DNA of 63,495 bases, counting the filler, from Sphacelaria rigidula (taxonomy: Eukaryota), in assembly GCA_964200075.2 (NCBI GenBank). It is 6 parts of 6 records of this genome, joined end to end, with 100 filler letters (N's around TTAATTAATTAA, not from the genome) between each part and the next. Parts side by side here need not be neighbours in the genome. Positions count along the whole stretch, not along the records: positions 42,400 to 52,897 come from CAXNAA020006387.1; 5 more parts are not named here. The stretch is one strand, 5' to 3'. A model generated the notes under the pieces. That model made no database searches and was not told the DNA's origin. It worked only from the letters and a program-made list of their open reading frames with translations. Below are positions 30,848 to 52,997 of this stretch, in pieces. Numbering within the stretch: the first letter of the stretch is position 1; the number at the start of each line of letters is the position of its first letter. The position numbers and the translations under genes are program-made.

Positions 30848-31701
30848 CTACACTCCTCCCATTCCAGCGCCACCGTGTGTAGGAGAAGGAGCTGTCACCT
30901 CTACCTTCGTTCCTGCTTCTACCCTAGGCACGGAAGACACCTCACGATCCGCCCCTGAGGGTAGCTGGCCCGGAAGTAAGAGTGGTGTTACACCACTACG
31001 CCTGGCAAAAGGGTACACACTACGCTTGCGTTTTGTTCCTTGGGCGCCAGCAACGCTTTCTCCACCACCGTCGGCTGTGCTGCTGCTTCCTCCACCACCG
31101 TCGCTTGTGGTGCGGGTGGAGGTGGGCTCCCCAGCGCTGGGGTATTCCATGTCGTACAGTGTAGCTACTTCATGCACAGTGGGATACTGTCGGCAACGTT
31201 TTGCCTCATCAAGGTCGTCGTTATTGAAAATATCCAATTTCAAGCGTCCCTCTTTGCTAGACTCGTAGCTCATCACACGAACCCTCCCTGCCCTGGCATT
31301 CTTCGAGCAGAACTCCGCCTTTTTGCTTCCCGCTACACCATACGACGGCTTCTTCGAGCAGCCCTCGTCTCCGCATTTCCTTGTCACCACATCCACCATT
31401 GCCACCCTGGCATGCTCGATGCAGAACTCCGCCTTCTTGCTTCCCGCTACACCATACAACGGCCCTCTGAAGCAGCCCTCTTCGCAGCATTTCTTCCTCA
31501 CTACATCCACCATCCCCGCCCTGGCATGCCGAGAGCAGAACTCCGCCTTCGTGCTTCCCGCTACACCATGCGACGGCTTCTTCGAGCAGCCCTCGTCGCC
31601 GCATTTCTTCCTCACCACATCCACCATTCCCGCCCTGGCATGCTGAGAGCAGAACTCCGCCTTCTTGCTTCCTGCTACACCATACGATGGCGGCTTCCAG
31701 C
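30848..31701 (-). CDS. EsV-1-7 cysteine-rich repeat protein, 5'-truncated by contig end
   Basis: Open frame from the contig edge to TAG at 30848. About 3.6 tandem 38-aa (114-bp) units MVDVVRKKCGDEGCSKKPSYGVAGSKKAEFCSxHARAG (C-x4-C...C-x2-H), the EsV-1-7 repeat pattern, then a low-complexity tail with TKRKR. Confidence 0.9.
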
Positions 31702-31801
31702 NNNNNNNNNNNNNNNNNNNNNNNNNNNNNNNNNNNNNNNNNNNNTTAATTAATTAANNNNNNNNNNNNNNNNNNNNNNNNNNNNNNNNNNNNNNNNNNN
31801 N
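31702..31801. other. Artificial contig linker
   Basis: N44-TTAATTAATTAA-N44. Confidence 0.97.
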
Positions 31802-42299: not shown

Positions 42300-42399
42300 N
42301 NNNNNNNNNNNNNNNNNNNNNNNNNNNNNNNNNNNNNNNNNNNTTAATTAATTAANNNNNNNNNNNNNNNNNNNNNNNNNNNNNNNNNNNNNNNNNNNN
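42300..42399. other. Artificial contig linker
   Basis: N44-TTAATTAATTAA-N44. Confidence 0.97.
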
Positions 42400-42616
42400 G
42401 GTTGGGTTGATCGCTTGAGACCATGGACTCATCCCGACGAAGGGGAGGGGTTCAAAGTGTGAGGAAAAAAAAAAAGTGCACGACGCACGCCTGGATCATG
42501 TTCGCGTTCGGCGTTTTCGCAGCAGCTTCCACACAAAGTCGCAATTTACCATCCCTGTTACGATTACTGTTTTTCCAAAACACACAAAACTCGAGAGTAT
42601 ACTTGCGTACACTTGC

Positions 42617-42718
42617 CTGCCTTTGCCATGCTTCGAAACGGCAGACATTTCGAAGTTCTTTCCCCCGCAGTACCACGTCTTCCCCCGTAACCGCCATGAA
42701 GAGTCCTGATGACACCTC
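42617..42718 (-). CDS. SNAP-25-like gene, probable exon 4 (fascin-like beta-trefoil strand set)
   Basis: TTGCAG|GAG in phase 0; encodes EVSSGLFMAVTGEDVVLRGKELRNVCRFEAWQRQ; probable GC donor CAG|GCAAGT. Gene runs off the contig. Confidence 0.6.
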
Positions 42719-43163
42719 CTGCAATACGGAGTGTAGATGGGTGAGAAACAGGCGATGGCTAGCAGTGATGAGCTTGCCTCAATTCACCCGGGAATGCAGA
42801 GGGCTTGGAGAGTATCGATGACGAGACCTTCGCAGCGGTCAAATACACAACGCCAATCATTGGGAATTGGAGTCGTCCATGTGGTTCATACGGGTGCGTA
42901 TGCACGCGGCATACACACGATCGCAGGCACACACGCCATCAGCTACATGGAAAACATGGCAAGTAAAATATTACTGGATTGTGTTCTATGGGGTACGGGT
43001 TCCCGTAGGGTATACAATTTCTTACAGAACTTACAGAACTATGAGGTCGGTGTGGAGGTTGTACAGAAACCCTTACCGGCAACCGAATATTTCTACCGGG
43101 GTATACCCGTGCCCCCGGTAAATCTGAAATTTTGGGGAATACGCAATAAAGGGTATACCCTGT

Positions 43164-43613
43164 GGTTTTAGGAACGAAATGGGGGTAGTGCACTTTCCGG
43201 TTTGCCACACGGCGCTCCACGCGGGCTGAGCACCTCGAGAACACATTCCAGCGCCTCAGCCCCACACCCAAGGTCCCTGGGCAGTATGCCCAAATTGTTT
43301 TTCTTTGGACTCATGGCACTAGGCTCGAGTACGGCGCGGAAAAGAAGAGCCTGTTGTATGGCATAACTTTTTTGCTGAAAGTCGGATGTACCCTGCTGGT
43401 TTGATGACAAAAAAAAGGGTGCTCTCACATGCTCTCCCTTTCCGAACCGTAATTAAGCCTAATGCCACACGAAGAAAAAAAAATTAAGTTGGACATGCTG
43501 CCCACCTTCGGCGTGAGGCTGAGGCGCTGGAACATGTTTTCGAGGTGCTTCGCCAGCGTGCAGCGCAGCTCCGCCTACCGAAAAGTACACTATCCCGCGT
43601 TGTTCCTAACACC
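43164..43613. mobile_element. Foldback/MITE with ~110-bp imperfect TIRs
   Basis: GGTTTTAGGAAC..AGCACCTCGAGAACACATTCCAGCGCCTCAGCC..AAGG (43164-43273) pairs with CCTT..GGCTGAGGCGCTGGAACATGTTTTCGAGGTGCT..GTTCCTAACACC (43506-43613); flanks TACCCTGT and TACCCCTT match 6/8. Confidence 0.7.
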
Positions 43614-44129
43614 TACCCCTTCTTGTATAATCCCCTGAATGTTTTGTACAGGTTTCACAGAACTATCGCGTATCGGTGCGGGAGGCTTACAGAAAAATCA
43701 CATACCTGGGGGGTACGGGTAATACCCTGGAAAATACGCTGAGTAAGCAAGAATCGTACCCTACAGAACACCACCTTGAAATATTCAAACTTCCGCCAAG
43801 TTCAGAACCGTACCGGGTACGTGCTTTCAACTAGGCAAATACTGGGTACAGTATAGCTCATGTGTAAAAAGATGTGCGCGGGGGACACGTTACTACATTT
43901 CAGCGCAGTGTACCCTGAAGCATGCAGCCATAACAACAACAACAACAACAAAAACAGTACCAGCAGCAGAAGCAGCAGCAAGAGCAACAGCAACAAATGC
44001 GGTGACAACTGAAACGCTGAAATGTTCTTGTCTTCGAAATGTTAGAATCAAACGCGCCCGACGCAAGCACCGCTACATGAGGGTTCTTGTTCTCGCACGT
44101 CCTGTATGCTGCGCACTAACAAAACGCAC

Positions 44130-44795
44130 CTGCAGCGCAACACTCATGACGAAGGTGGGCTTCTTCGGCTTCGCACTCTGAGCATGCCGGGCGGCTTTCC
44201 GCGTCACAAACATCGCGCGATCGTTGGACTCCTCCGTCTTTTCCACCACTCGCTCCAGCGTATTCCCCTGCTCCTCGATGCTCGCTCCAATATTTCGCCC
44301 CAGCAACCCAAGCTCCGTCACCGCACGCCCCACCTCATCCAAGTACGCATCTTGTGCAGCCATCACAGCTTTTTGCTCCGCGACTACTCCTCCTGCCCCT
44401 GAAAATTGTCCCCCCGCCTCCGACCCCGTTCCACTGGCGATTGAGTCTCCTTCGATCGCTCTGCCACCAAACAACTGCTCTTTGAGACTTCCACTTTGAG
44501 AACTACTGCCGGTACTGCCATCGCCGACAACAGTATTACCCGCGCCACCATCTCTCGCCTCCCTTTCTTCGTTCCCCGCAACAAAGTCTGGTTCCTTCAA
44601 GCGTCGCTGTTCGAGGCTTGTCGGGGAGGTTGCTCCGCCTCCACTACCTCCGTGCTCAGATTCGAAGTGCGCAACTAGGCCGTCGGGGGTGTGGAAATTC
44701 CGTCTGCAGTCTGGGCAGATGAAGCCTTCGGCTGGCGTATCGTCCATCGATACACGGCCGGCTTCGGTGGATGAACGGTTGTACGACTCAGGGAT
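44130..44795 (-). CDS. SNAP-25-like Qbc-SNARE, exon 3 (C2H2 zinc finger, Gly/Ser linker, Qc motif)
   Basis: GAAG|ATC ... CAG|GTGCGT, 222 codons; FICPDCRRNFHTPDGLVAHFESEH and QDAYLDEVGRAVTELGLLGRNIGASIEEQGNTLERVVEKTEESNDR (zero-layer Q). Confidence 0.88.
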
Positions 44796-45207
44796 CTTCG
44801 ACCGACCGCAGGAGCAGCAATAGTAGTAGTAGCAGCAGCATGGAGACATAATTGGTGCAAAGCTATGCAAACGGGAAAATTTACCTACTACATACGTGAA
44901 TTCGATTCCTTTCACAGGTTTAGTACCACTGGAACACACGCCACCAACGGGGGGTTCCCCCGGGCGATGAATAAAATAACATTTTCGCGGCTACTAGATG
45001 AGGACCCAAAGGCTACAGAAACAAGGTGAGGCTCCTGATCATGTGCCGAAAATTTCGTGTCTCGTGTTGTCACTTTTGCGGGACATGACCAGGTCCGTCA
45101 TGAGGTAGCATGCGACTGTGTGCTCAGCGCGCTCAAAATGGGCGAAAGTCACCGCTAATGGTGACGAACAACAGAAACAACAAAAAACGAGTGGCGCTCG
45201 GTAGTAC

Positions 45208-45332
45208 CTTCGGTGCTTCCGAGAAGGCATTTGCGATCTTGCCCCAAAAATTCATGCCCCTCAGCACGCGGGCGCTCTGCTCGATCGCGTATCTCGTGGA
45301 GTCCAAAACCATCTCCGACCGCTCCAGACGTT
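45208..45332 (-). CDS. SNAP-25-like Qbc-SNARE, exon 2 (second half of Qb motif)
   Basis: CAAAG|AA CGT, phase 1 matching exon 1; encodes (E)RLERSEMVLDSTRYAIEQSARVLRGMNFWGKIANAFSEAPK; donor AAG|GTACTA. Confidence 0.85.
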
Positions 45333-47194
45333 CTTTGAGTAGGGAAATTGAATAGCGGAAAGCGCCGAAGGAATTGGGATGCCGCGCGACATAACTTGTC
45401 AGTGCTAGTCACGCATTGTCGAATGAAAAAGAGGCCACACGGAGACCGTGGAATGTCACCGCTAAGCAATAACGAGGCATTTGTCACATCTGTTAGGGCA
45501 ACACCAGTGTAAGCACATAATCATTGTCCCCACCGAAGCTGGCTGGTGCTACGCACATGTGTCACGTGCATCTAGTGTCCTTGGCAAACAGCCAGGAGAA
45601 CCCAATGACATTGTGACTCCAACCGTCAAGAGGGAGGGACAGAGGCGGGGGAGGGGTGGGTGGGGGTACCCAGGGCTCGGAAGTACATAACGCTGCTTTC
45701 AGGGTCAAGCTCAACCGTCCTTGGAATAATGATATTCGCCTACGCTTAACCCTTCGACTGAAACCCCCCTCATGTGGACTCAGATGGTGTACGCCACATT
45801 GGGGTTTAGAACAGCTGTTTTTTTCACTACACAAACCGCAGTTTTACGTGAACATTTGGATGTTGGCCATATAAAACAAAAATTAGTCTAGGAGAACGCC
45901 TGACCGGCTTTTACCCTGGAGTCAAGTAAGTGCGGATTCAGTAAGTATGTTATATGTCATTACTGGATACGACGGCAAGGAACAGTGAGCGTGCCATCGC
46001 TCGCCACTGAACACAGTCTACTGCACGCTGCTGATGCCTTCTCTACGCTGGTAACACAAGATTGGTCAGGCAGGCGGCAAGGACCAAGGGTCTAGTAAAG
46101 CACTTTGCTTGTACCAATGTTATCCATGGTTGAAAGATTATGACCAACATGAGAAATACGGCTAGGCTGCGAGGTAGTCCATCTGTAGTCCATCTGGGGA
46201 GTTGTATACCGATCATTTTGACCCATTACAGCTATCAAAATGGTTGCTCCGCTCCTCTCGTGCCTATTTCCTAGTATTTTTCGTGAGAAACTTCTCATCA
46301 CACACGGCTAGTTTTTTATTTTTTCGGCTGTTCTGCGAAGGACCCCCACCCGCTGTCAACCCCCCCCCCCCCGCTCCCTGGAAACTCCCGGATGTCCTTG
46401 GACTGTAAGCCGGTAAAAGTATCTAGAGGCGACGCTTGCGGTCTAAGTGTTGACATTGAGGGAAGACATCGGAACAAAAAACTTAGAGGCAGAGTTAGGA
46501 GCTGGTGTAACCCTCAGACGGCGAGAGTAGGTCATCTGTACAATCGGCATCAAACTCACTTGAAAAAAGTATGCATGATTCAAGTGGACTACCCACGCGA
46601 GGTGGGTAAATCGGAGTTGGACTACATTCTGTCTATGGTTGACACATTTTACAACTATCGATAGTTAGGACAAATCATCACGAAATTCACGATTCCTTCG
46701 GCCTGATTGCCCAAAAGGGAGAAAACGTTTATCGCTGGTCCAAGGGGTATCCACGCAACTTTTGCCCCATTCCACGTTTCTTGGCTGCGTGTACCTGGGT
46801 TGTAACGCTAATATAAAGCCTAGGGATTGATTCGTCACGAGTCGACTCATCATACTAACTAAAACCAAGTAATTTTCAGACGAATCATTAATTGTCCGAC
46901 CCTTGAACTATCGCTAACCCTAACTCTAACCCCAGTCCAAGGCATACCGAGACCCTTTGGCAAGGGATGTGGACAGGGTTCCCTCAGCAAAGTGTGCGTT
47001 GGTAGACCTCAAATCGGCGCCTGTGGTACCAATTTGGACGGAAACCGAAAACGCGTTCTGCGCACGCCAGGAGCACACGGGACTGTCAAGCCCCCTACAG
47101 ATCCGATTTTCATTGTTTATACTCAAATCAAGTAATATCATATTGTAACCCAACTCCGGTTGACTCTACTGACCCTCGCGGTCTAGGGGTTAAT

Positions 47195-47322
47195 ACGACA
47201 TCCCTTCTCTCCTTGGGATTCGTCACTCGTGGTCGAAGATGAAAACATACGCATCATCGTCAACTATCAACGGTTGAATCGTGTCACCGTCGTTGGAAAA
47301 CTCCCGATCCCAAGCATGGATT
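47195..47322 (+). mobile_element. Isolated Gypsy RT fragment in an intron
   Basis: Translates SPWDSSLVVEDENIRIIVNYQRLNRVTVVGKLPIPSMD, matching the RT N-terminal SPW.SP.VV..R..VNY..LN..T....P.P..D motif also seen at 35280-35405. Confidence 0.65.
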
Positions 47323-47988
47323 AACCCTTTCGAAACTCACAATGGAAAATTCATTATTTACAGTTGACGATTTTTGAGGTAGATATGGTTGATGGTTTAC
47401 AGCTCAGACGCAACAACATCCACCCAGCGCGTATTTTCCAGACCCGTGCGAGTGATAAGTGGAACAAAATAAAGTTTCCTATTTGCCGATGTGCCGTACC
47501 AGACCCTGGAACCCATTGCTGTTTTTGAATGGAACGTTTCAGTGTTCTTGCTAATCATTGTCGATTATTATTCTTGTCGATGGATACAACTGGACACACT
47601 TTATCCGTTGCGTGGTATGATTGGATAACCCTTACCCGACCTCTCCAGGGAGGACAGTTTTCTTGCACCCGCCGCGTGTGCTACCTGACTTTTCTCCGGT
47701 CTTCCATTACAAAATAGTTGCCGTCGGTCTTTTCTGCTTCTACATTTCCCTCTTTCTCAGAGCTTCTCATAATGAGGCGTTTGGCCCAGGGACAGGAGGG
47801 GGGGGTTTCAAAAGGGTCAAGTCTTCCACCCCCTGGGCGAAGGAAAAATACCAAGTATCTTCGACCTTGCTTTTGGATTTTTTCGAATGTTTTTCACCCT
47901 GACACAACAGTCCCACTTACGAATTTCAAAAATAAGACGTTTTCAGCCCTTCCCGACATCCTCAAACGCGCACATGATCGGTTTTCAC

Positions 47989-48465
47989 CTTTTTGGTCTT
48001 GAAGGTTCTCAAGTGTCGCTTTGCCTGTTTCCGCGGACTCGTGCGCGGAGCGCAGCCCTCGTCGCCGTTCGTCAGTGTCAATCCTATCTCGTACTTGTGC
48101 CCACGACAGCTGCTGCTGCTCTCGCTGTGGCTGCTGCTCATGGTGGCCGCTATATCGACCGTGACCACTTCCGCCACCTTTCCACACTACGCCTACAGAG
48201 TCGGCCTCGGCGTCGCTACATCCGCCCTGGTTGCTGTTAATTCATTGCTCCCTTCAGACAAAAATGATTGATGGGCTGGCCGTTGAGGTCTTGCCCCCGA
48301 AAGCTGATTGCTGTTGTATCCCGGTGCTCTAGTTCCCCTTGGTGGCGGTAACGAAGAGGTAGGTCGCCGCGAACTGGGGCCAAATAGCGCGTCTCGATCC
48401 TGCTGTTGCACTTCGTCCTGTTGCATTCCTTCTTCCTGGCTAGCTCCTGGTTGCAGAATCAGCAT
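47989..48465 (-). CDS. SNAP-25-like Qbc-SNARE, exon 1 (N-terminus and first half of Qb motif; apparent frameshift near 48240)
   Basis: 3' part encodes RRGLRSAHESAETGKATLENLQDQK with donor AAA G|GTGAAA at 47989. The 5' part (ATG 48465, ..QQDRDALFG..) is in a different frame, so the start is uncertain. Confidence 0.7.
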
Positions 48466-51400
48466 GGTCGCCGCCAGTGTGAGGGCGGCGAGTGTATTTG
48501 GAATTGATTAATTCCAACGTGAGTATGATCAAATCTACTTTGCAGCTCTATGAACGGTCATTGAGTACTAACAGGTGAAGGTGAGCGTGCAACAAGCAGT
48601 ACTGTCACATCGCCGGCAGTGGGGGGGTGTTACTGAACGTACAAAGCAGACAAAGTCACGCAACGACCATAGCTACCTGATACAACCGTACACATCTCGT
48701 TCTTGCGTGCACTCTCAGCTGCTGCTTCTACTTCGCCATCAATCTACGTACATGCACGATAAAAGCAAACACCCCAGATAAACGCCGACTACGACCACTA
48801 CACAGCAGACAGCACAGAACTCATCGACAGTACAACAGTACAGTACACTACCACTGTTGTTGCAGAACGTTCGGAATGTCCTCCGCTTCCCTCCGCCGGT
48901 TCGAAAACATCAACATGGAAAACGAAGACTGCATTGAGCTAGTGCGTATTTTTGATGGACTGTTCGATGGCAACACTCACCGTATTGAAAAAACTAACAC
49001 ACTGGAACAACTAGTGGGGCAGTATAGCACCAAGGTAATTATATATCAACGCGTTCCCGCTGGGAACACAACGGGCGCATTCAGTGTTGCGTCGACCATA
49101 TTTTCATCATTATTTTGTACCGGCTCAACGCCTCCGTATATGTGTGGATGATGATAATTTTCGCAGGTAATCGGGTAGGACGCTGCAACCTTGACCCCCA
49201 TTTCTTCAGGGCAACAAACAGCACGCAGTGAGTATGGCTGATAGCTCAAACCTCTGTAATGAATTAAGGTGAGTTTGAATTTATAACTGCAGCTTTGGAG
49301 CAAGATGAGGTGGCGTTGGACGAGAGAAGGCGGAGTTTGTCTCTACCACCCTTCTCGCGCGGACCGGATCTACGTGTCGCAGGAAACTTCTAATACTACT
49401 CTCGCGATACATTACTTTCTACTTTCTACGTCGCCAAGGCGACGCCCATAGCTTTGGGACCATTGGGGTTCTACTGCAAAAGTTCCGACAGGGTTCTCCC
49501 GGAATCTCCTCAACTGAACACTTTGATTGAAGCCCGAAACTTGTCGGAAAAATCCCGCTCGATTTTACAGTAGTACGAACCACGCGCAGGTAACCACGTT
49601 CTGGACATCGCTGTGCTGACATGAATTGCAGAACAAATCTTTTGCGCTGTGCTGTCTATCGGCTCAAAGAAAAGATGCACGTGATATAAAGATAACCAGC
49701 AATCCATCGCAAACGGTTTGGAGGGGATTTCATCCGTACCAGGAATCGAACAATGCGACAGAAGCTGGGAACCATACAGATACCGGGAAGTTGGACTGTT
49801 GTACCGTAGTCGACTTGATTTTGATGCACTGCCCGTAGCCAACTCCGACTGCAGCGATATTCGTGCCTTCAAACACGAAGAGAGACTGACTGGTCGATAA
49901 AATGTAAACTCTGAACGAAAATAAGAATGGCGCGACCCCTCTCTTGGAACAATATGCAACAAATGTGTACACCAGCAAGGGCCTGTCGAAATATATACAT
50001 CTGGGCACGTAGGCCCCAAGATCGAAAATTCGAGTTTTTGAGGGGAGGGGCACCCAGCCTGCTGTCCCCCCTAGTTTAATGCCAAAGCGTTGGCGAGTGC
50101 GGTCGGCTACCGTCTGCGAAGATTTTTGCAATGAACACCGATGAGATGGCGGACACGCCCCCTCCCCCAAGCTCATCACTTACCATGATTGCGTATATGG
50201 GATCATATTCCGTGTCGTGGGCCTCGAGTACGGTAGTCCGGGCAAGTTTGGCGAAGCGTAAGATAAAGTTGCTACTTTGGCTGCAGGCTGTCGCTACCGT
50301 GCGCTCGTGTGCATGCATGTGTGTGAGGGTGGCGGGCATCCGAGGTCATCGGGACAGTAGAGTGGGCAAGGGGCAGAAGCAAAGCCAAACCTCGCAAAGC
50401 CCACCAGACTCTTCGGTTTTTGTCAGCATTTCTTGACAAATTTTCTTCAATAAAATTGACGATGTTATTGGACATTTTTTCACTTTTCGAAAATTTCTCT
50501 CCGGGAGGGTTGGGGGGCGGGGCTGTGTCTAAAAGTCTTCTCCCGACAGACCCTTGACGCCAGAGATATAGTGTGCAAGGTCCTGAGAGCTTGAATTTGC
50601 CAGAAGGAATTATGTACGGCGAAACTGCCGCGTTTATTGCCTTGCTTCCAGCGGCTGTTCCGACCGCGTCATGTGTGCGCGAAGACCTTGCACAAACTTA
50701 ACGGTACAGTATCTCTATACGCACGGTGCCAACTGAGACATATCGACTTGCGCTGTGTAGCTAGCACACCTAGTTATTGATATCAATGTCTTCCAGTTCT
50801 ACTGTGTGTGATAGACCCTCGTCGCGATGAATAATCAGAGGTGAAGTCAAAAGTACGACTACCAAATATCGCCTCTGTTTCAGGTGAAGTCGAAATCACA
50901 ACTAATTTTGGCCTGAAACAGTCGCTGCCATAATAGTAGATGCTGCTTGCGTGTGCCACTTCAATGTGCAAAGGCAATGCGCTGGATTATGTTCAGCATG
51001 AGAAACGATTCGATCGATTCGATTGAATCTCGGAAAGAGTGGATCCACGGTAAGGGTGCACGAAAAAGTTCTCAGACTTCCAACTTAGGAGCTTTTCGAT
51101 GAGGAAACATTTGGGCTCAAGTGTGTGCAACATCGGACATTTTTTGGCATTAGAAGAGCACCCCCACCGCGGCGCCACTCGAAGGCAAAATTGAAAATTA
51201 CTTTCGGGCTTGTATAAGTAGCGATATCTGGTATTGGTGCTTCCGAAGAGGTATACAGGGTTCGTTGTACGTCTTGCCATATATTGATGAGTAAGTGCTT
51301 GGTGGACTTCATTGGCTTCACCGTATCTTGTTTTCGTAGGGGATGGTGAATAAGATGACTTTATCGTCGACGCAGTACAGCAGCGTTGGGATAAATTGCA

Positions 51401-52897
51401 CATTTATTAGAGAATGTCGATCGGAAAATTACACAAGGAGTGTTCCGTTGGTTAAAATTGTTGCTAAGCGGTTAGGGTAGGGTAGATTAAAAAGTCGGGT
51501 ATTTTGGCGTGCCGATTCCGTTTGTACCCGAGTGATGCTGCGATATCCCGCCCCCAGAAAAATGGCTGGTTTGAGGAGGCAAAATCTACGTTTGAATTAA
51601 AATTACAAAGCAAAGTCCATCAAACGGCTGGGACTTCCAACACCTGCCCAGGATCGTTTTCGCTAATGTCGCCCATGTGAGGCGCTTTATGAAGTCTGAA
51701 ACCAGCCATCATGCGCTGTATGGCCACTTTTTTCGTGACAGTTTTGGGGCTGGTTTAGGAGGGGGCTGTCGTGTCATCACTCACTTTGGAACCCTGAGTA
51801 CATTCAGCTGTGTGCAAACCCTGGATATCCTGAAATATTGAGTATTTTCGACGGTCCGTACCCTGGGTACCCCAAATACTGAGTACTGAGCATCCTGGGC
51901 AGCCGATACCGCGGGGCACTTGGAGTGCTGAGTATACGTACCAAGTACCCCTGGTACCAAGTGCGTGCAGTCGAGCTCCCACGGATAAGTGCTGGCATGT
52001 TGCTGTGAGTAAATCACATTCTGGGCACCCGTAGCCGACACGACTGGACATCAGCACCCGTTGCAGCGTCTCGGGGGTCTATGAGCACCGAGGCACTCAA
52101 CCCGTGACATACCCCCACAGCCTGTAACTTCCAAGTAGTACATGGCGATGATGAGATAATCAGCTTCCTTGCATTACTTACCGACACATGTACTGAAGCA
52201 GCACATCAAGTCTTGGGGCATGGCGTGGACGATGGCCGCTATACTGTAGTCGGTGACGGGGGTCAAGTTTTCACTCCGTGTGTGCCCCGGTTGGGTACTT
52301 CGAGTGTTTCTCCACATGCGACGAATCACGATGCGTGTACGATTTGTCCCGTATGAGTCGTGGCCGAGGAAAAACTTCGATTTGATTCATGTTGTAGGGA
52401 TCATGGGAGAGCAGTGCTACGGTAGGGGTTACACTTTTTGTTTCTGGGCCTCGTTTTTGTAGGAGCCCAAATATATGGGGCTTACTGTGCAACCCAAGTC
52501 TCCGGGGACAAGACATGGAAATGCACACAGGGGCCTTTTCGTGGATCGGCATCATTTTCAGTCTTTTTCAAGTGAAAATGATGCCGATTCTCAGAATGAT
52601 CCGTGCAACACCCCGGGGAACATTTTCGCTCAACAAGTGCAACCCTACCGTAGCATCACTCGGGAATTGAAAACGAATGTCAAATCCAAGCTGCACGGAT
52701 GTCGGGTGGGTATCATGCACAATTCATCTTGTCCGAATTAAGGATGGAGAACATTGGAAGGATTCGTCCTGCAAGAACTAGGTGCATGAAAAAAGTTCAC
52801 GGTTACGACAAATAATGATTCGTCAGGAAATTAGTTGGTTTTAGTACCATAAGTTGACTCGTGATGAATGAATCCCCGTGACTCATTTCAGCGTTAC

Positions 52898-52997
52898 NNN
52901 NNNNNNNNNNNNNNNNNNNNNNNNNNNNNNNNNNNNNNNNNTTAATTAATTAANNNNNNNNNNNNNNNNNNNNNNNNNNNNNNNNNNNNNNNNNNNN
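52898..52997. other. Artificial contig linker
   Basis: N44-TTAATTAATTAA-N44. Confidence 0.97.

Follow-up and report, generated by a model that had tools for sequence, protein, structure and literature searches.

The minus strand of a 63,495-nucleotide stretch of Sphacelaria rigidula DNA (the window, made of joined pieces of ~10.6 kb) carries a SNARE gene, whose product has, in order, a Qb SNARE motif, a C2H2 finger, a Gly/Ser linker and a Qc SNARE motif, then the opening 34 residues of another domain. In our best explanation, for which, with the mechanism inferred below, our confidence is slightly better than even, a real brown-alga gene is present here with its 5' two-thirds and encodes a soluble t-SNARE with two helices, i.e. 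one of “Qbc” architecture. What is unusual is an EEA1-type finger lying between two SNARE helices, together with a predicted beta-trefoil domain at the usual place of the membrane anchor. An earlier note on this DNA did not know the architecture from characterised proteins; it is conserved, and no description of a SNARE-finger-trefoil protein was found within the searchable literature. The features are as follows, splice sites being marked by a slash here and below.

42617-48465, minus strand: candidate SNARE gene, with four exon segments at 48241-47989, 45332-45208, 44795-44130 and 42718-42617.
48196-48465, minus strand: N-terminal coding ORF in frame A; ATGs lie at 48465 and 48426, the stop at 48195-48193.
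48399-48379, minus strand: conserved N-terminal motif DRDALFG, common to P0055, P0020 and P0076.
47989-48241, minus strand: exon 1, 3' part, read in frame B, which is that of Qb and has no in-frame ATG (tblastn P0055 78-117, E 4.6e-12, 72.5% identity).
45208-45332, minus strand: exon 2, encoding Qb layers +1 to +8 (C-terminal half of the motif) and then FWGKIANAF (tblastn P0055 117-160, E 2.3e-18, 86% identity).
44130-44795, minus strand: exon 3, 222 codons covering a short linker, the C2H2 finger, a Gly/Ser-rich linker, the Qc motif, a basic/Pro linker and the first C-terminal strand (tblastn E 9.5e-50).
44652-44729, minus strand: EEA1-type C2H2 finger EGFICPDCRRNFHTPDGLVAHFESEH, C-x2-C-x12-H-x4-H (Pfam zf-C2H2_4 E 0.0012, below the cut-off).
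44184-44342, minus strand: Qc SNARE motif, from layer -7 (Leu) to layer +8 (His), with its zero-layer Gln codon at 44270-44268.
42617-42718, minus strand: exon 4, encoding 34 residues of the beta-trefoil-like C-terminal domain (tblastn P0055 375-414, E 1.9e-14, 70% identity).
42300-42399, no strand: end of the piece, a run of N with a TTAATTAATTAA linker (42344-42355); five such linkers lie ~10.6 kb apart.

Exons were mapped by tblastn of the window with P0055, the orthologue from Ectocarpus, as query. As judged by this comparison, the matches to exactly four segments are far beyond chance, and no further P0055 exon was found anywhere in the window. Because the gene's piece stops at 42400, the window lacks most of the C-terminal domain. 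All three junctions proposed earlier (47989-45332, 45208-44795 and 44130-42718) agree with the orthologues and are reproduced gaplessly in their sequence, the joins including ...QDQK/ERLERSE... and ...VALQ/EVSSG.... The exon 1 donor AAG/GTGAAA lies right after 47989, in phase 1, and the acceptor before exon 2 is AAAG/; the corresponding signals are AAG/GTACTA and GAAG/ between exons 2 and 3, and CAG/GTGCGT and TGCAG/ between exons 3 and 4. In translation, exon 4 opens at 42718 with EVSSGLFMAVTGEDVVLRGKELRNVCRFEAWQRQ; it ends with a GC-type donor, CAG/GCAAGT, at 42617/42616, beyond which the orthologues go on ...RQ/(H/D)GI.GLK. A stop-to-stop ORF of 305 aa (44073-44990, minus strand) holds FICPDCRRNFHTPDGLVAHFESEH, the Gly/Ser-rich linker, which carries an LKEQLFGGR motif, and the Qc SNARE motif, which is followed by the basic/Pro linker AQSAKPKKPT.

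Searching 1.84 billion representatives with exon 3 gave 54 matches at E <= 0.001 (best 2.1e-98), at least 21 of which read as family members. Named sources are Ectocarpus, Nemacystus, Ascophyllum, Laminaria, Pylaiella, Discosporangium, Chrysoparadoxa, Phaeothamnion, Heterococcus and Tribonema. Full-length orthologues with the whole architecture, from sources including Ectocarpus, Ascophyllum, Chrysoparadoxa and Tribonema, bear out the earlier description of a two-motif SNARE (Qb then Qc) with a C2H2 finger in its linker and a C-terminal extension. These predicted proteins show the complete architecture preserved across brown algae, Xanthophyceae, Phaeothamniophyceae and Chrysoparadoxophyceae; the earlier note had proposed a survey of brown algae, diatoms and oomycetes, and no diatom or oomycete is among the named sources. 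In the phylogenetic tree the window sequence groups with P0001 (98), within a clade of 13 rows (99) to which the three named brown algae also belong.

The Qb motif starts at ~48067, has its zero-layer Gln codon at 47995-47993 and reaches layer +8 (Met, codon 45255-45253) in exon 2. A single chain thus has Qb and Qc motifs, both with a zero-layer Gln and the heptad pattern across 16 layers; in the layer table this Gln is present in 21 of 21 sequences for Qc and six of seven for Qb. Against PDB, the family profile matches syntaxin 8 (7.7e-6), SNAP-29 C (8.5e-5) and SNAP-25 C (1.4e-4) for Qc and Vti1b (0.0032) for Qb, with subtype scores separated by few bits only (28.1 versus 24.7 and 24.0). The Qb half of P0076 alone gives Vti1b (0.0088) and Vti1a (0.016), then SNAP-29 N (0.21) and SNAP-25 N (0.37). 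Pfam V-SNARE_C has a sub-threshold match over the exon 2 stretch in orthologues, and the Pfam SNAP-25 family matches none of seven. In a large library, the closest TM-anchored Qc relatives are members of the syntaxin 6/10/61 family. Neither a transmembrane segment nor a Cys cluster was found in the full-length orthologues; the top 19-residue hydropathy is 0.96-1.29 in six of seven, versus 2.66-3.08 in three TM-anchored Qc SNAREs.

The earlier term “SNAP-25-like” fits the architecture but not the nearest solved motifs, which are Vti1b/Vti1a (Qb) and syntaxin 8 (Qc). Like SNAP-25, SNAP-23, SNAP-29, SNAP33 and Sec9, the protein is a soluble chain without a transmembrane anchor, with an N-terminal Qb and a C-terminal Qc motif, a long flexible linker and a zero-layer Gln in both motifs. 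However, the algal linker has a zinc finger instead of a Cys cluster, the Qb half is closer to Vti1 than to SNAP-25 N, and the chain runs past Qc into a domain of ~150 residues, whereas canonical Qbc SNAREs of the SNAP-25 type normally terminate directly after Qc. Vti1b and syntaxin 8, endosomal Qb and Qc SNAREs with a solved complex (1GL2), are the best-scoring solved motifs for the two halves, by small margins over other SNAREs; they are two membrane-anchored proteins, whereas the algal motifs sit in one anchor-less chain.

Since Vti1 and syntaxin 8 provide the nearest solved motifs and the finger type is that of a Rab5 effector, our best guess at the pathway is, tentatively, endosome/TGN, with the plasma membrane a less likely site; the endosomal reading is weak, given that the subtype scores differ by few bits. 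Alternatively, though we think it unlikely, the protein could correspond in brown algae to the exocytic/cytokinetic Qbc SNAREs (SNAP-25, SNAP33, Sec9), working at the plasma membrane or cell plate, with two accessory domains gained; the finger and trefoil would then target secretory vesicles, e.g. along actin, rather than act in endosomal fusion. In favour of this, the protein has the identical motif order in one chain and no membrane anchor, the SNAP-29 and SNAP-25 C-terminal motifs are ~4 bits or less from syntaxin 8, and another Qbc-type protein of these algae is absent from the matches, in searches not aimed at one. Against it, the Qb half is nearer to Vti1b/Vti1a, the Pfam SNAP-25 family goes unmatched, the closest anchored Qc relatives are syntaxin 6/10/61 proteins, and the finger is of a class known from a Rab5 effector.

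The best PDB match of the finger is the EEA1 finger 3mjh_B, with E 0.0013 alone and 2.9e-8 with the family profile, by which the next solved C2H2 finger reaches 0.0013. All 21 family proteins compared have the finger signature, and the residues matching EEA1 F41/I42 are F in 20 and I in 19 of these; the last zinc ligand and spacing deviate in P0016, P0035 and P0058 (His to Cys in P0016 and P0035). On sequence grounds the finger belongs to the EEA1 class, as suggested previously. It shares with the N-terminal EEA1 finger (a Rab5-GTP binding domain, PDB 3MJH) the EGFICPxC...L..H(F/Y) signature, including the Phe-Ile pair, but the EEA1 finger heads a long homodimeric coiled-coil tether, whereas the algal one is within a linker between SNARE helices. 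Rab5 binding had been ascribed to the fingers of both EEA1 and Rabenosyn-5; among passages on these two proteins, it is documented for EEA1 only, where the binding is described as impaired by F41A/I42A (PMC10397212), whereas a passage on Rabenosyn-5 has a mutant without the C2H2 finger still reaching Rab5Q79L endosomes (PMC2185588).

This Rabenosyn-5 result would suit a finger that is a structural zinc knot, or another protein- or nucleic-acid-binding C2H2, and not Rab-binding, its EEA1 likeness reflecting a common subclass only. Generic C2H2 Pfam models also match weakly, and the same signature is found in 32 fingers of 20 other, unrelated match proteins, VASt-domain proteins among them. We nevertheless regard a non-Rab role as doubtful, as EEA1 is far ahead of all other solved C2H2 fingers with the family profile, the Phe-Ile pair is nearly invariant, and the host is a trafficking protein.

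The window holds 8+34 residues of the C-terminal extension, the first strand of which, FVMSVALQ, is encoded at 44153-44130 in exon 3; in orthologues the domain has ~150 residues and begins ~10 residues past Qc layer +8. ESM Atlas models of P0016 and P0055 superpose on the RicinB, Fascin, FRG1 and DUF7910 trefoil clusters with TM 0.61-0.76 over 123-135 residues, a call made from the Atlas's own models only (whole-protein pLDDT 0.65 and 0.58), and language-model features also favour the Fascin/FRG1/DUF7910/ricin-B families (scores 0.90-0.93). By its match to beta-trefoil models, which is found only in the ESM Atlas, the extension may be placed among the beta-trefoils. However, Pfam Fascin, FRG1 and Ricin match none of seven orthologues, a PDB profile search with the domain gave no trefoil but chance-level matches (best E 0.09, an antibody chain), and self-comparison gave no internal threefold repeat. 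The earlier note's term “fascin-type” has no Pfam or PDB sequence match behind it. To our knowledge, none of these trefoil families is part of a SNARE. The domain has a pI of 5.7-8.8 and is not markedly basic, so that simple electrostatic membrane binding is not favoured.

From these parts we infer how a SNARE-finger-trefoil protein may function; that it would read a Rab and bind actin or glycan was proposed earlier, likewise by inference. In a SNARE bundle it would provide two helices out of four, its partners being a Qa syntaxin and an R-SNARE. As it has no lipid or membrane anchor, its finger might recruit it to a Rab5-class GTPase in the GTP-bound state, by analogy with EEA1. The C-terminal beta-trefoil would lie at the membrane-proximal end of the bundle, replacing a transmembrane anchor, and could there hold a membrane-proximal partner, either a lipid head group or actin. 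Vam7 is a soluble Qc SNARE with one SNARE motif, recruited by an N-terminal lipid-binding PX domain, and is likewise an anchor-less SNARE needing an added targeting domain to reach the membrane; the algal protein differs in having two motifs, a Rab-effector-type finger and a putative C-terminal trefoil.

The four phase-compatible exons of the earlier note hold, by tblastn and junctions, for exons 2-4 and the 3' part of exon 1, but exon 1 as 48465-47989 is not open: ATG 48465 and the Qb exon are in different frames, and reading from this ATG meets stops at codons 91 and 93. The N-terminal ORF, which P0055 residues 1-55 match by tblastn at E 0.03, is taken as real despite this mismatch because P0055, P0020 and P0076 share its conserved motif DRDALFGPSSRR; with the Qb exon in another frame, the frame must therefore break somewhere from 48241 to 48196. 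Convincing splice signals are absent from all 149 candidate intron pairs compatible with the frame (GT or GC donor), which, with the two stops, could mean that the gene is a pseudogene in this genome. This is quite improbable, in that all other exons are intact and free of stops, with 81% identity to the closest relative over 205 residues, and the break falls where the sequence is of low complexity and poorly conserved, so that an indel in the assembly or a small unconventional intron is equally likely.

Most improbable of all is a gene-model artefact, in which the SNARE stops just past Qc and the trefoil exon is a separate downstream gene: in-frame read-through of the exon 3 donor does meet a stop after 21 codons (ORF 44073-44990), and the majority of database relatives are unspliced ORF calls with such ends, but in 16 unspliced predictions conservation ends exactly at ...ALQ and the tails beyond are mutually unrelated, whereas six relatives that are spliced or lack introns share the conserved continuation EV..G.(F/Y)L, the Laminaria digitata model P0012 has the same type of splice (ALQ/EVSTG), P0029 (68.5-kb contig) and P0035 (three ~1.7-kb contigs) have Qb, finger, Qc and domain in one uninterrupted ORF, and P0058 derives from a transcriptome assembly.

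The minus-strand gene belongs to a conserved family of Q-SNAREs that carry two SNARE motifs in one chain, have no membrane anchor, hold an EEA1-class zinc finger in the linker between the motifs, and continue after the second motif into a folded C-terminal domain. Searching exon 3 against 1.84 billion representative proteins gave 54 matches at E <= 0.001, of which 16 lie at <= 1e-10; the top match is 81% identical (E 2.1e-98), and inspection assigns at least 21 of the matches to the family. The sources named are the brown algae Ectocarpus sp., Nemacystus decipiens, Ascophyllum nodosum, Laminaria digitata, Pylaiella littoralis and Discosporangium mesarthrocarpum, and, from other classes, Chrysoparadoxa australica, Phaeothamnion confervicola, Heterococcus and Tribonema minus. 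No diatom or oomycete is among the named sources of the family hits, a source being named for a minority of them. Two divergent full-length members come from contigs (P0029, on a contig of 68.5 kb, and P0035, on three of about 1.7 kb; P-numbers denote database relatives). The finger, the Qc motif and the C-terminal domain stand in one chain in nine proteins, and those with an intact 5′ end have the Qb motif too. In the phylogenetic tree the window sequence pairs with P0001 (support 98), and the pair falls inside a clade of 13 brown-alga rows (99), where the gene nests with Ectocarpus, Nemacystus and Ascophyllum; Heterococcus and Tribonema form a pair (97), to which Chrysoparadoxa attaches (94). 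These groupings fit vertical descent. The nesting of the gene, together with an ORF of EsV-1-7 cysteine-rich motifs on another piece of the window, marks the source as a brown alga. A profile search with the family alignment returned only four proteins, all previously found, and a scan of metagenome contigs gave 86 pattern matches and no relatives.

The window is punctuated by a linker, TTAATTAATTAA, which lies between N runs and has stops in six frames. Its five copies are about 10.6 kb apart (10546, 21147, 31746, 42344 and 52942), and the piece that holds the SNARE gene therefore runs from 42400 to about 52890; neighbourhood cannot be assumed for features on opposite sides of these linkers. 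Coding segments were compared with the Ectocarpus orthologue P0055 by tblastn, with the entire window as target, and no further P0055 exon was found across the window beyond the segments listed here.

Features of the two-motif SNARE gene, with tblastn results for P0055
N-terminal ORF, minus strand: E 0.03, 42% identity
48399-48379, minus strand: N-terminal copy of the R-(D/E/Q)-x-L-F-G motif, DRDALFG
Ending at 47989, minus strand: 3′ part of exon 1, donor AAG/GTGAAA, phase 1; E 4.6e-12, 72.5% identity
47995-47993, minus strand: codon of the zero-layer Gln of the Qb motif
45332-45208, minus strand: exon 2, from reading of the strand and tblastn; E 2.3e-18, 86% identity
44795-44130, minus strand: exon 3, 222 codons; E 9.5e-50, 54% identity
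44729-44652, minus strand: C2H2 finger EGFICPDCRRNFHTPDGLVAHFESEH, C-x2-C-x12-H-x4-H
About 44486-44460, minus strand: pre-Qc copy of the R-(D/E/Q)-x-L-F-G motif, LKEQLFGGR, in exon 3, from reading of the window
44270-44268, minus strand: codon of the zero-layer Gln of the Qc motif
42718-42617, minus strand: exon 4, starting at 42718 and ending ...EAWQRQ at 42617; E 1.9e-14, 70% identity

Exons 2, 3 and 4 of the earlier note's gene model, together with its three junctions, were borne out by the reading of the minus strand and by its splice sites. The boundary of exon 3 after ...VALQ is well marked in comparisons with relatives: in 16 ORF-type predictions without splicing, taken from other samples, the sequence is shared as far as ALQ and unrelated tails follow, and six spliced or intron-free relatives, including one Laminaria digitata model, continue after ALQ with EV(S/T/R)(S/T)G.(F/Y)L. 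Exon 4 ends at an apparent GC-type donor (CAG/GCAAGT, 42617/42616), with a weaker GT 4 nt beyond. The Laminaria model P0012 runs through the point of this GC donor, as if a non-GT donor had been missed there too. A search of the 88-aa ORF of exon 4 against longer proteins gave 20 candidates, none of which scored.

Exon 1 had been proposed as open from 48465 to 47989, and it is not, as the frame from the ATG at 48465 meets stops at codons 91 and 93. The Qb part of the exon lies in a different frame, without an ATG (ORF 47894-48241). The proteins of Ectocarpus, Pylaiella and Ascophyllum have the stretch DRDALFGPSSRR of the ATG ORF (from 48399 on) close to their N-terminus, and by this comparison the ATG ORF is to be taken as real coding sequence. 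The frame must switch within 48241-48196, where the sequence is of low complexity and little conserved. Among 149 frame-compatible GT/GC...AG pairs listed as introns that might explain the break, none has convincing signals. The break could be an indel in the assembly, an odd small intron or a true frameshift.

Profile and single-sequence searches of PDB sequences place a Qb motif first and a Qc motif second in the same chain. With the family profile, the first helix matches the Qb motifs of Vti1b (E 0.0032), Vti1a (0.11) and the N-terminal motif of SNAP-29 (0.13), and the second matches the Qc motifs of syntaxin 8 (E 7.7e-6) and the C-terminal motifs of SNAP-29 (8.5e-5) and SNAP-25 (1.4e-4), followed by Sec9 (0.27) and syntaxin 6 (0.34). 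The Ascophyllum protein P0076 alone gives Vti1b (0.0088), Vti1a (0.016), SNAP-29 N (0.21), syntaxin 8 (0.23) and SNAP-25 N (0.37). The heptad layers -7 to +8, set in register with the offsets of SNAP-25, are present, and the zero-layer Gln is found in all 21 sequences for Qc and in six of seven for Qb. Layer by layer, Qc has L V V L G I L Q L V T S/A T/A V A Q; Qb has small residues upstream and then L, Q (the six of seven), L S V/L T I/V S L M. The two helices are thus a bona fide Qb and Qc pair in one chain.

The name SNAP-25-like, under which the gene was described earlier, fits the pair in its architecture. The order of two motifs in one chain and the lack of an anchor agree with that name, but the Pfam SNAP-25 family was matched in none of seven orthologues and the closest solved motifs are those of Vti1b and syntaxin 8. 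These two form an endosomal pair, and they lead the other solved motifs by small margins of score. V-SNARE_C of Pfam is matched on the Qb motif below threshold in three of the seven orthologues, and the nearest membrane-anchored Qc SNAREs in a large library are of the syntaxin 6/10/61 family. No hydrophobic segment was found in the orthologues: over 19 residues, the hydropathy peaks at 0.96-1.29 in six of the seven, as against 2.66-3.08 in three anchored Qc SNAREs taken for comparison; the seventh, P0036, exceeds 2 within a probable retained intron. SNAP-25 and SNAP-23 have a palmitoylated cluster of cysteines in the linker, whereas no cluster of that type was found in the linkers of the algal orthologues: the only linker cysteines of P0055 are the two zinc ligands, and in P0016 and P0035 the finger is flanked by a few others. 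A further difference lies at the end of the chain, which in SNAP-25-type Qbc SNAREs stops shortly after Qc and in the algal proteins adds a domain of about 150 residues. This domain is present in nine relatives (P0016, P0055, P0056, P0057, P0058, P0035, P0036, P0029 and P0076), and exon 4 of the window begins it.

The zinc ligands of the finger between the two motifs are C27, C30, H43 and H48 in the numbering of exon 3. The last ligand or its spacing deviates in three orthologues (Cys for His in P0016 and P0035, a shorter spacing in P0058). The best solved match of the window's exon 3 is the finger of EEA1 with Rab5 (3mjh_B, E 0.0013); the family profile matches the same finger at 2.9e-8, and the next C2H2 finger at 0.0013. 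The structure of the EEA1 finger is reportedly due to Mishra et al. in 2010. In the alignment to 3mjh_B, F25-I26 of the window fall on the Phe-Ile pair of EEA1 (F41, I42), and among 21 family sequences, 20 have the Phe and 19 the Ile. The assignment of an EEA1-class finger between the SNARE motifs thus holds, with EEA1 as the best solved match and the Phe-Ile pair near-invariant. According to excerpts of the papers concerned, the EEA1 finger is a Rab5-GTP binding domain (PMC5902227), and its F41A/I42A mutant is impaired in Rab5 binding (PMC10397212). The same kind of N-terminal finger is common to Rabenosyn-5, Vac1p and EEA1, as described in part of PMC2185588. It had been stated that fingers of both EEA1 and Rabenosyn-5 bind Rab5-GTP; we limit this to EEA1, since Rabenosyn-5 without its finger still reached Rab5Q79L endosomes, again in the available part of that paper (PMC2185588).

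Another 20 hit proteins carry the finger signature, in 32 fingers altogether, and two of these proteins have a VASt domain and two fingers each. The latter, P0018 (380 aa) and P0026 (501 aa), combine a weak match to VASt, a lipid-transfer domain, with two C-terminal EEA1-type fingers, and this finger class thus seems to be attached to other proteins of membrane traffic or lipids.

The C-terminal domain begins about 10 residues (AQSAKPKKPT) past layer +8 of Qc. At that point in anchored SNAREs, the transmembrane anchor would follow. The window covers 8+34 residues of the domain before the piece with the gene stops at 42400. In ESM Atlas models of two relatives, P0016 (residues 282-425) aligns with trefoil clusters at TM 0.71-0.76 (among the named matches are RicinB_lectin_2, Fascin, DUF7910 and Ricin_B_lectin), and P0055 (residues 366-537) does so at 0.61-0.63 (DUF7910, FRG1, RicinB_lectin_2 and GH3-linked clusters). 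The whole-protein pLDDT is 0.65 for P0016 and 0.58 for P0055. The Atlas feature search ranked Fascin-like, FRG1 and DUF569 clusters at 0.90-0.93. Given models of such modest confidence, the trefoil matches are leads. Pfam found neither Fascin (PF06268) nor FRG1 (PF06229), nor any trefoil family, at E <= 10 in the seven orthologues, and Fascin and FRG1 were also absent from the other family proteins scanned. A profile of the domain gave ten matches at E <= 10 among PDB sequences, all at chance level, no trefoil among them and the best an antibody chain (0.092), and self-comparison with hhalign showed no internal repeat, only an off-diagonal match of seven columns (E 0.33). The isoelectric point of the domain is 5.7-8.8. 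From the structural models we consider a beta-trefoil quite probable. The fascin-like extension that had been suggested stands as an extra domain after Qc with trefoil matches in Atlas models, and its fascin type is no more than a possibility, with a Pfam match to Fascin or FRG1 in none of seven orthologues. The last part of P0055, P0056 and P0057 (Ectocarpus, Nemacystus and Phaeothamnion) is a Gly-rich tail closed by a Trp, which is absent from the Ascophyllum model P0076 and, Phaeothamnion excepted, from relatives outside the brown algae.

An R-(D/E/Q)-x-L-F-G motif occurs twice in the protein, once near the N-terminus and once in the linker before Qc. It is recorded in P0055, P0020 (Pylaiella), P0076 and P0016 as well as the window, and Ascophyllum adds a second Arg two residues upstream in the N-terminal copy. 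The pre-Qc copy is found in most family sequences that cover the stretch and is absent from P0029 and P0058. For the N-peptide of Tlg2, which binds Vps45, the available portion of PMC7470827 gives Arg3, Arg5, Tyr9 (often Phe) and Arg13 as key residues, and the algal motif has the same spacing of four from Arg to Phe. By this analogy, the motif as a docking peptide for SM proteins is a lead only.

In a four-helix bundle, this protein would provide two of the helices, alongside a syntaxin and an R-SNARE; its finger could bring it to membranes bearing an active Rab5-class GTPase, and the trefoil, at the membrane-proximal end, might hold lipid, actin or another partner. Because of the likeness to Vti1 and syntaxin 8, the neighbours in the syntaxin 6 family and the finger of Rab5-effector type, we lean towards a role at the endosome or TGN; a role at the plasma membrane is the alternative. 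An endosomal role can be carried into a joint reading, which we put forward as an improbable one. The protein would then be no decorated SNAP-25 but an independently evolved endosomal Qbc SNARE, in which a Vti1-type Qb was fused to a Qc of syntaxin-8/6 type, and in which one chain does jobs that are elsewhere split among a tether, an SM adaptor and anchored SNAREs. Its EEA1-type finger would read Rab5-GTP, its two R-x-R-(D/E)-A-L-F-G-like peptides recall, by their spacing of Arg and Phe, the N-peptide with which syntaxins dock SM proteins such as Vps45, and its beta-trefoil would be a peripheral hold on membrane or actin in place of an anchor.

The functions of SNARE, Rab effector and tether usually belong to different proteins, and the field of membrane traffic has as one of its central questions how the identity of a Rab reaches the fusion machinery. 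A SNARE with a finger of Rab5-effector type in its linker, and with a folded domain where an anchor would be, would amount to a natural experiment in direct coupling of Rab to SNARE and in transmission of force without an anchor. Brown algae and their sister classes are marked by heavy secretion of polysaccharides and by unusual cytokinesis, and the family, being conserved in these organisms, may mark a lineage-specific step of trafficking. The database labels of its members are only "unnamed protein product", "hypothetical protein" and "C2H2-type domain-containing protein", so that annotators would miss the protein as a SNARE. The literature searched yielded no paper on Qbc SNAREs of brown algae, nor on any SNARE that has a zinc finger or a trefoil. 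The available text of a SNARE survey (PMC11344281) does not contain the terms zinc, trefoil, fascin or stramenopil, and an excerpt of another paper (PMC5399786) mentions Qbc-type SNAREs from SAR that group with neither the yeast nor the human ones.

Around the gene, Rfam gave no match in 42400-52900 and no tandem repeats were found in 42400-48600. ORFs in intron 1 had the look of reverse transcriptase, which Pfam did not confirm. Intron 3 holds an inverted repeat with arms of 93 nt each (43182-43274 and 43504-43596) that are 78% complementary and 229 nt apart, resembling a small foldback or MITE-like element. On another piece of the window, a 301-aa ORF on the minus strand (30848-31753) carries four EsV-1-7 cysteine-rich motifs (Pfam PF19114, E 3.2e-54), a family that is expanded in brown algae.
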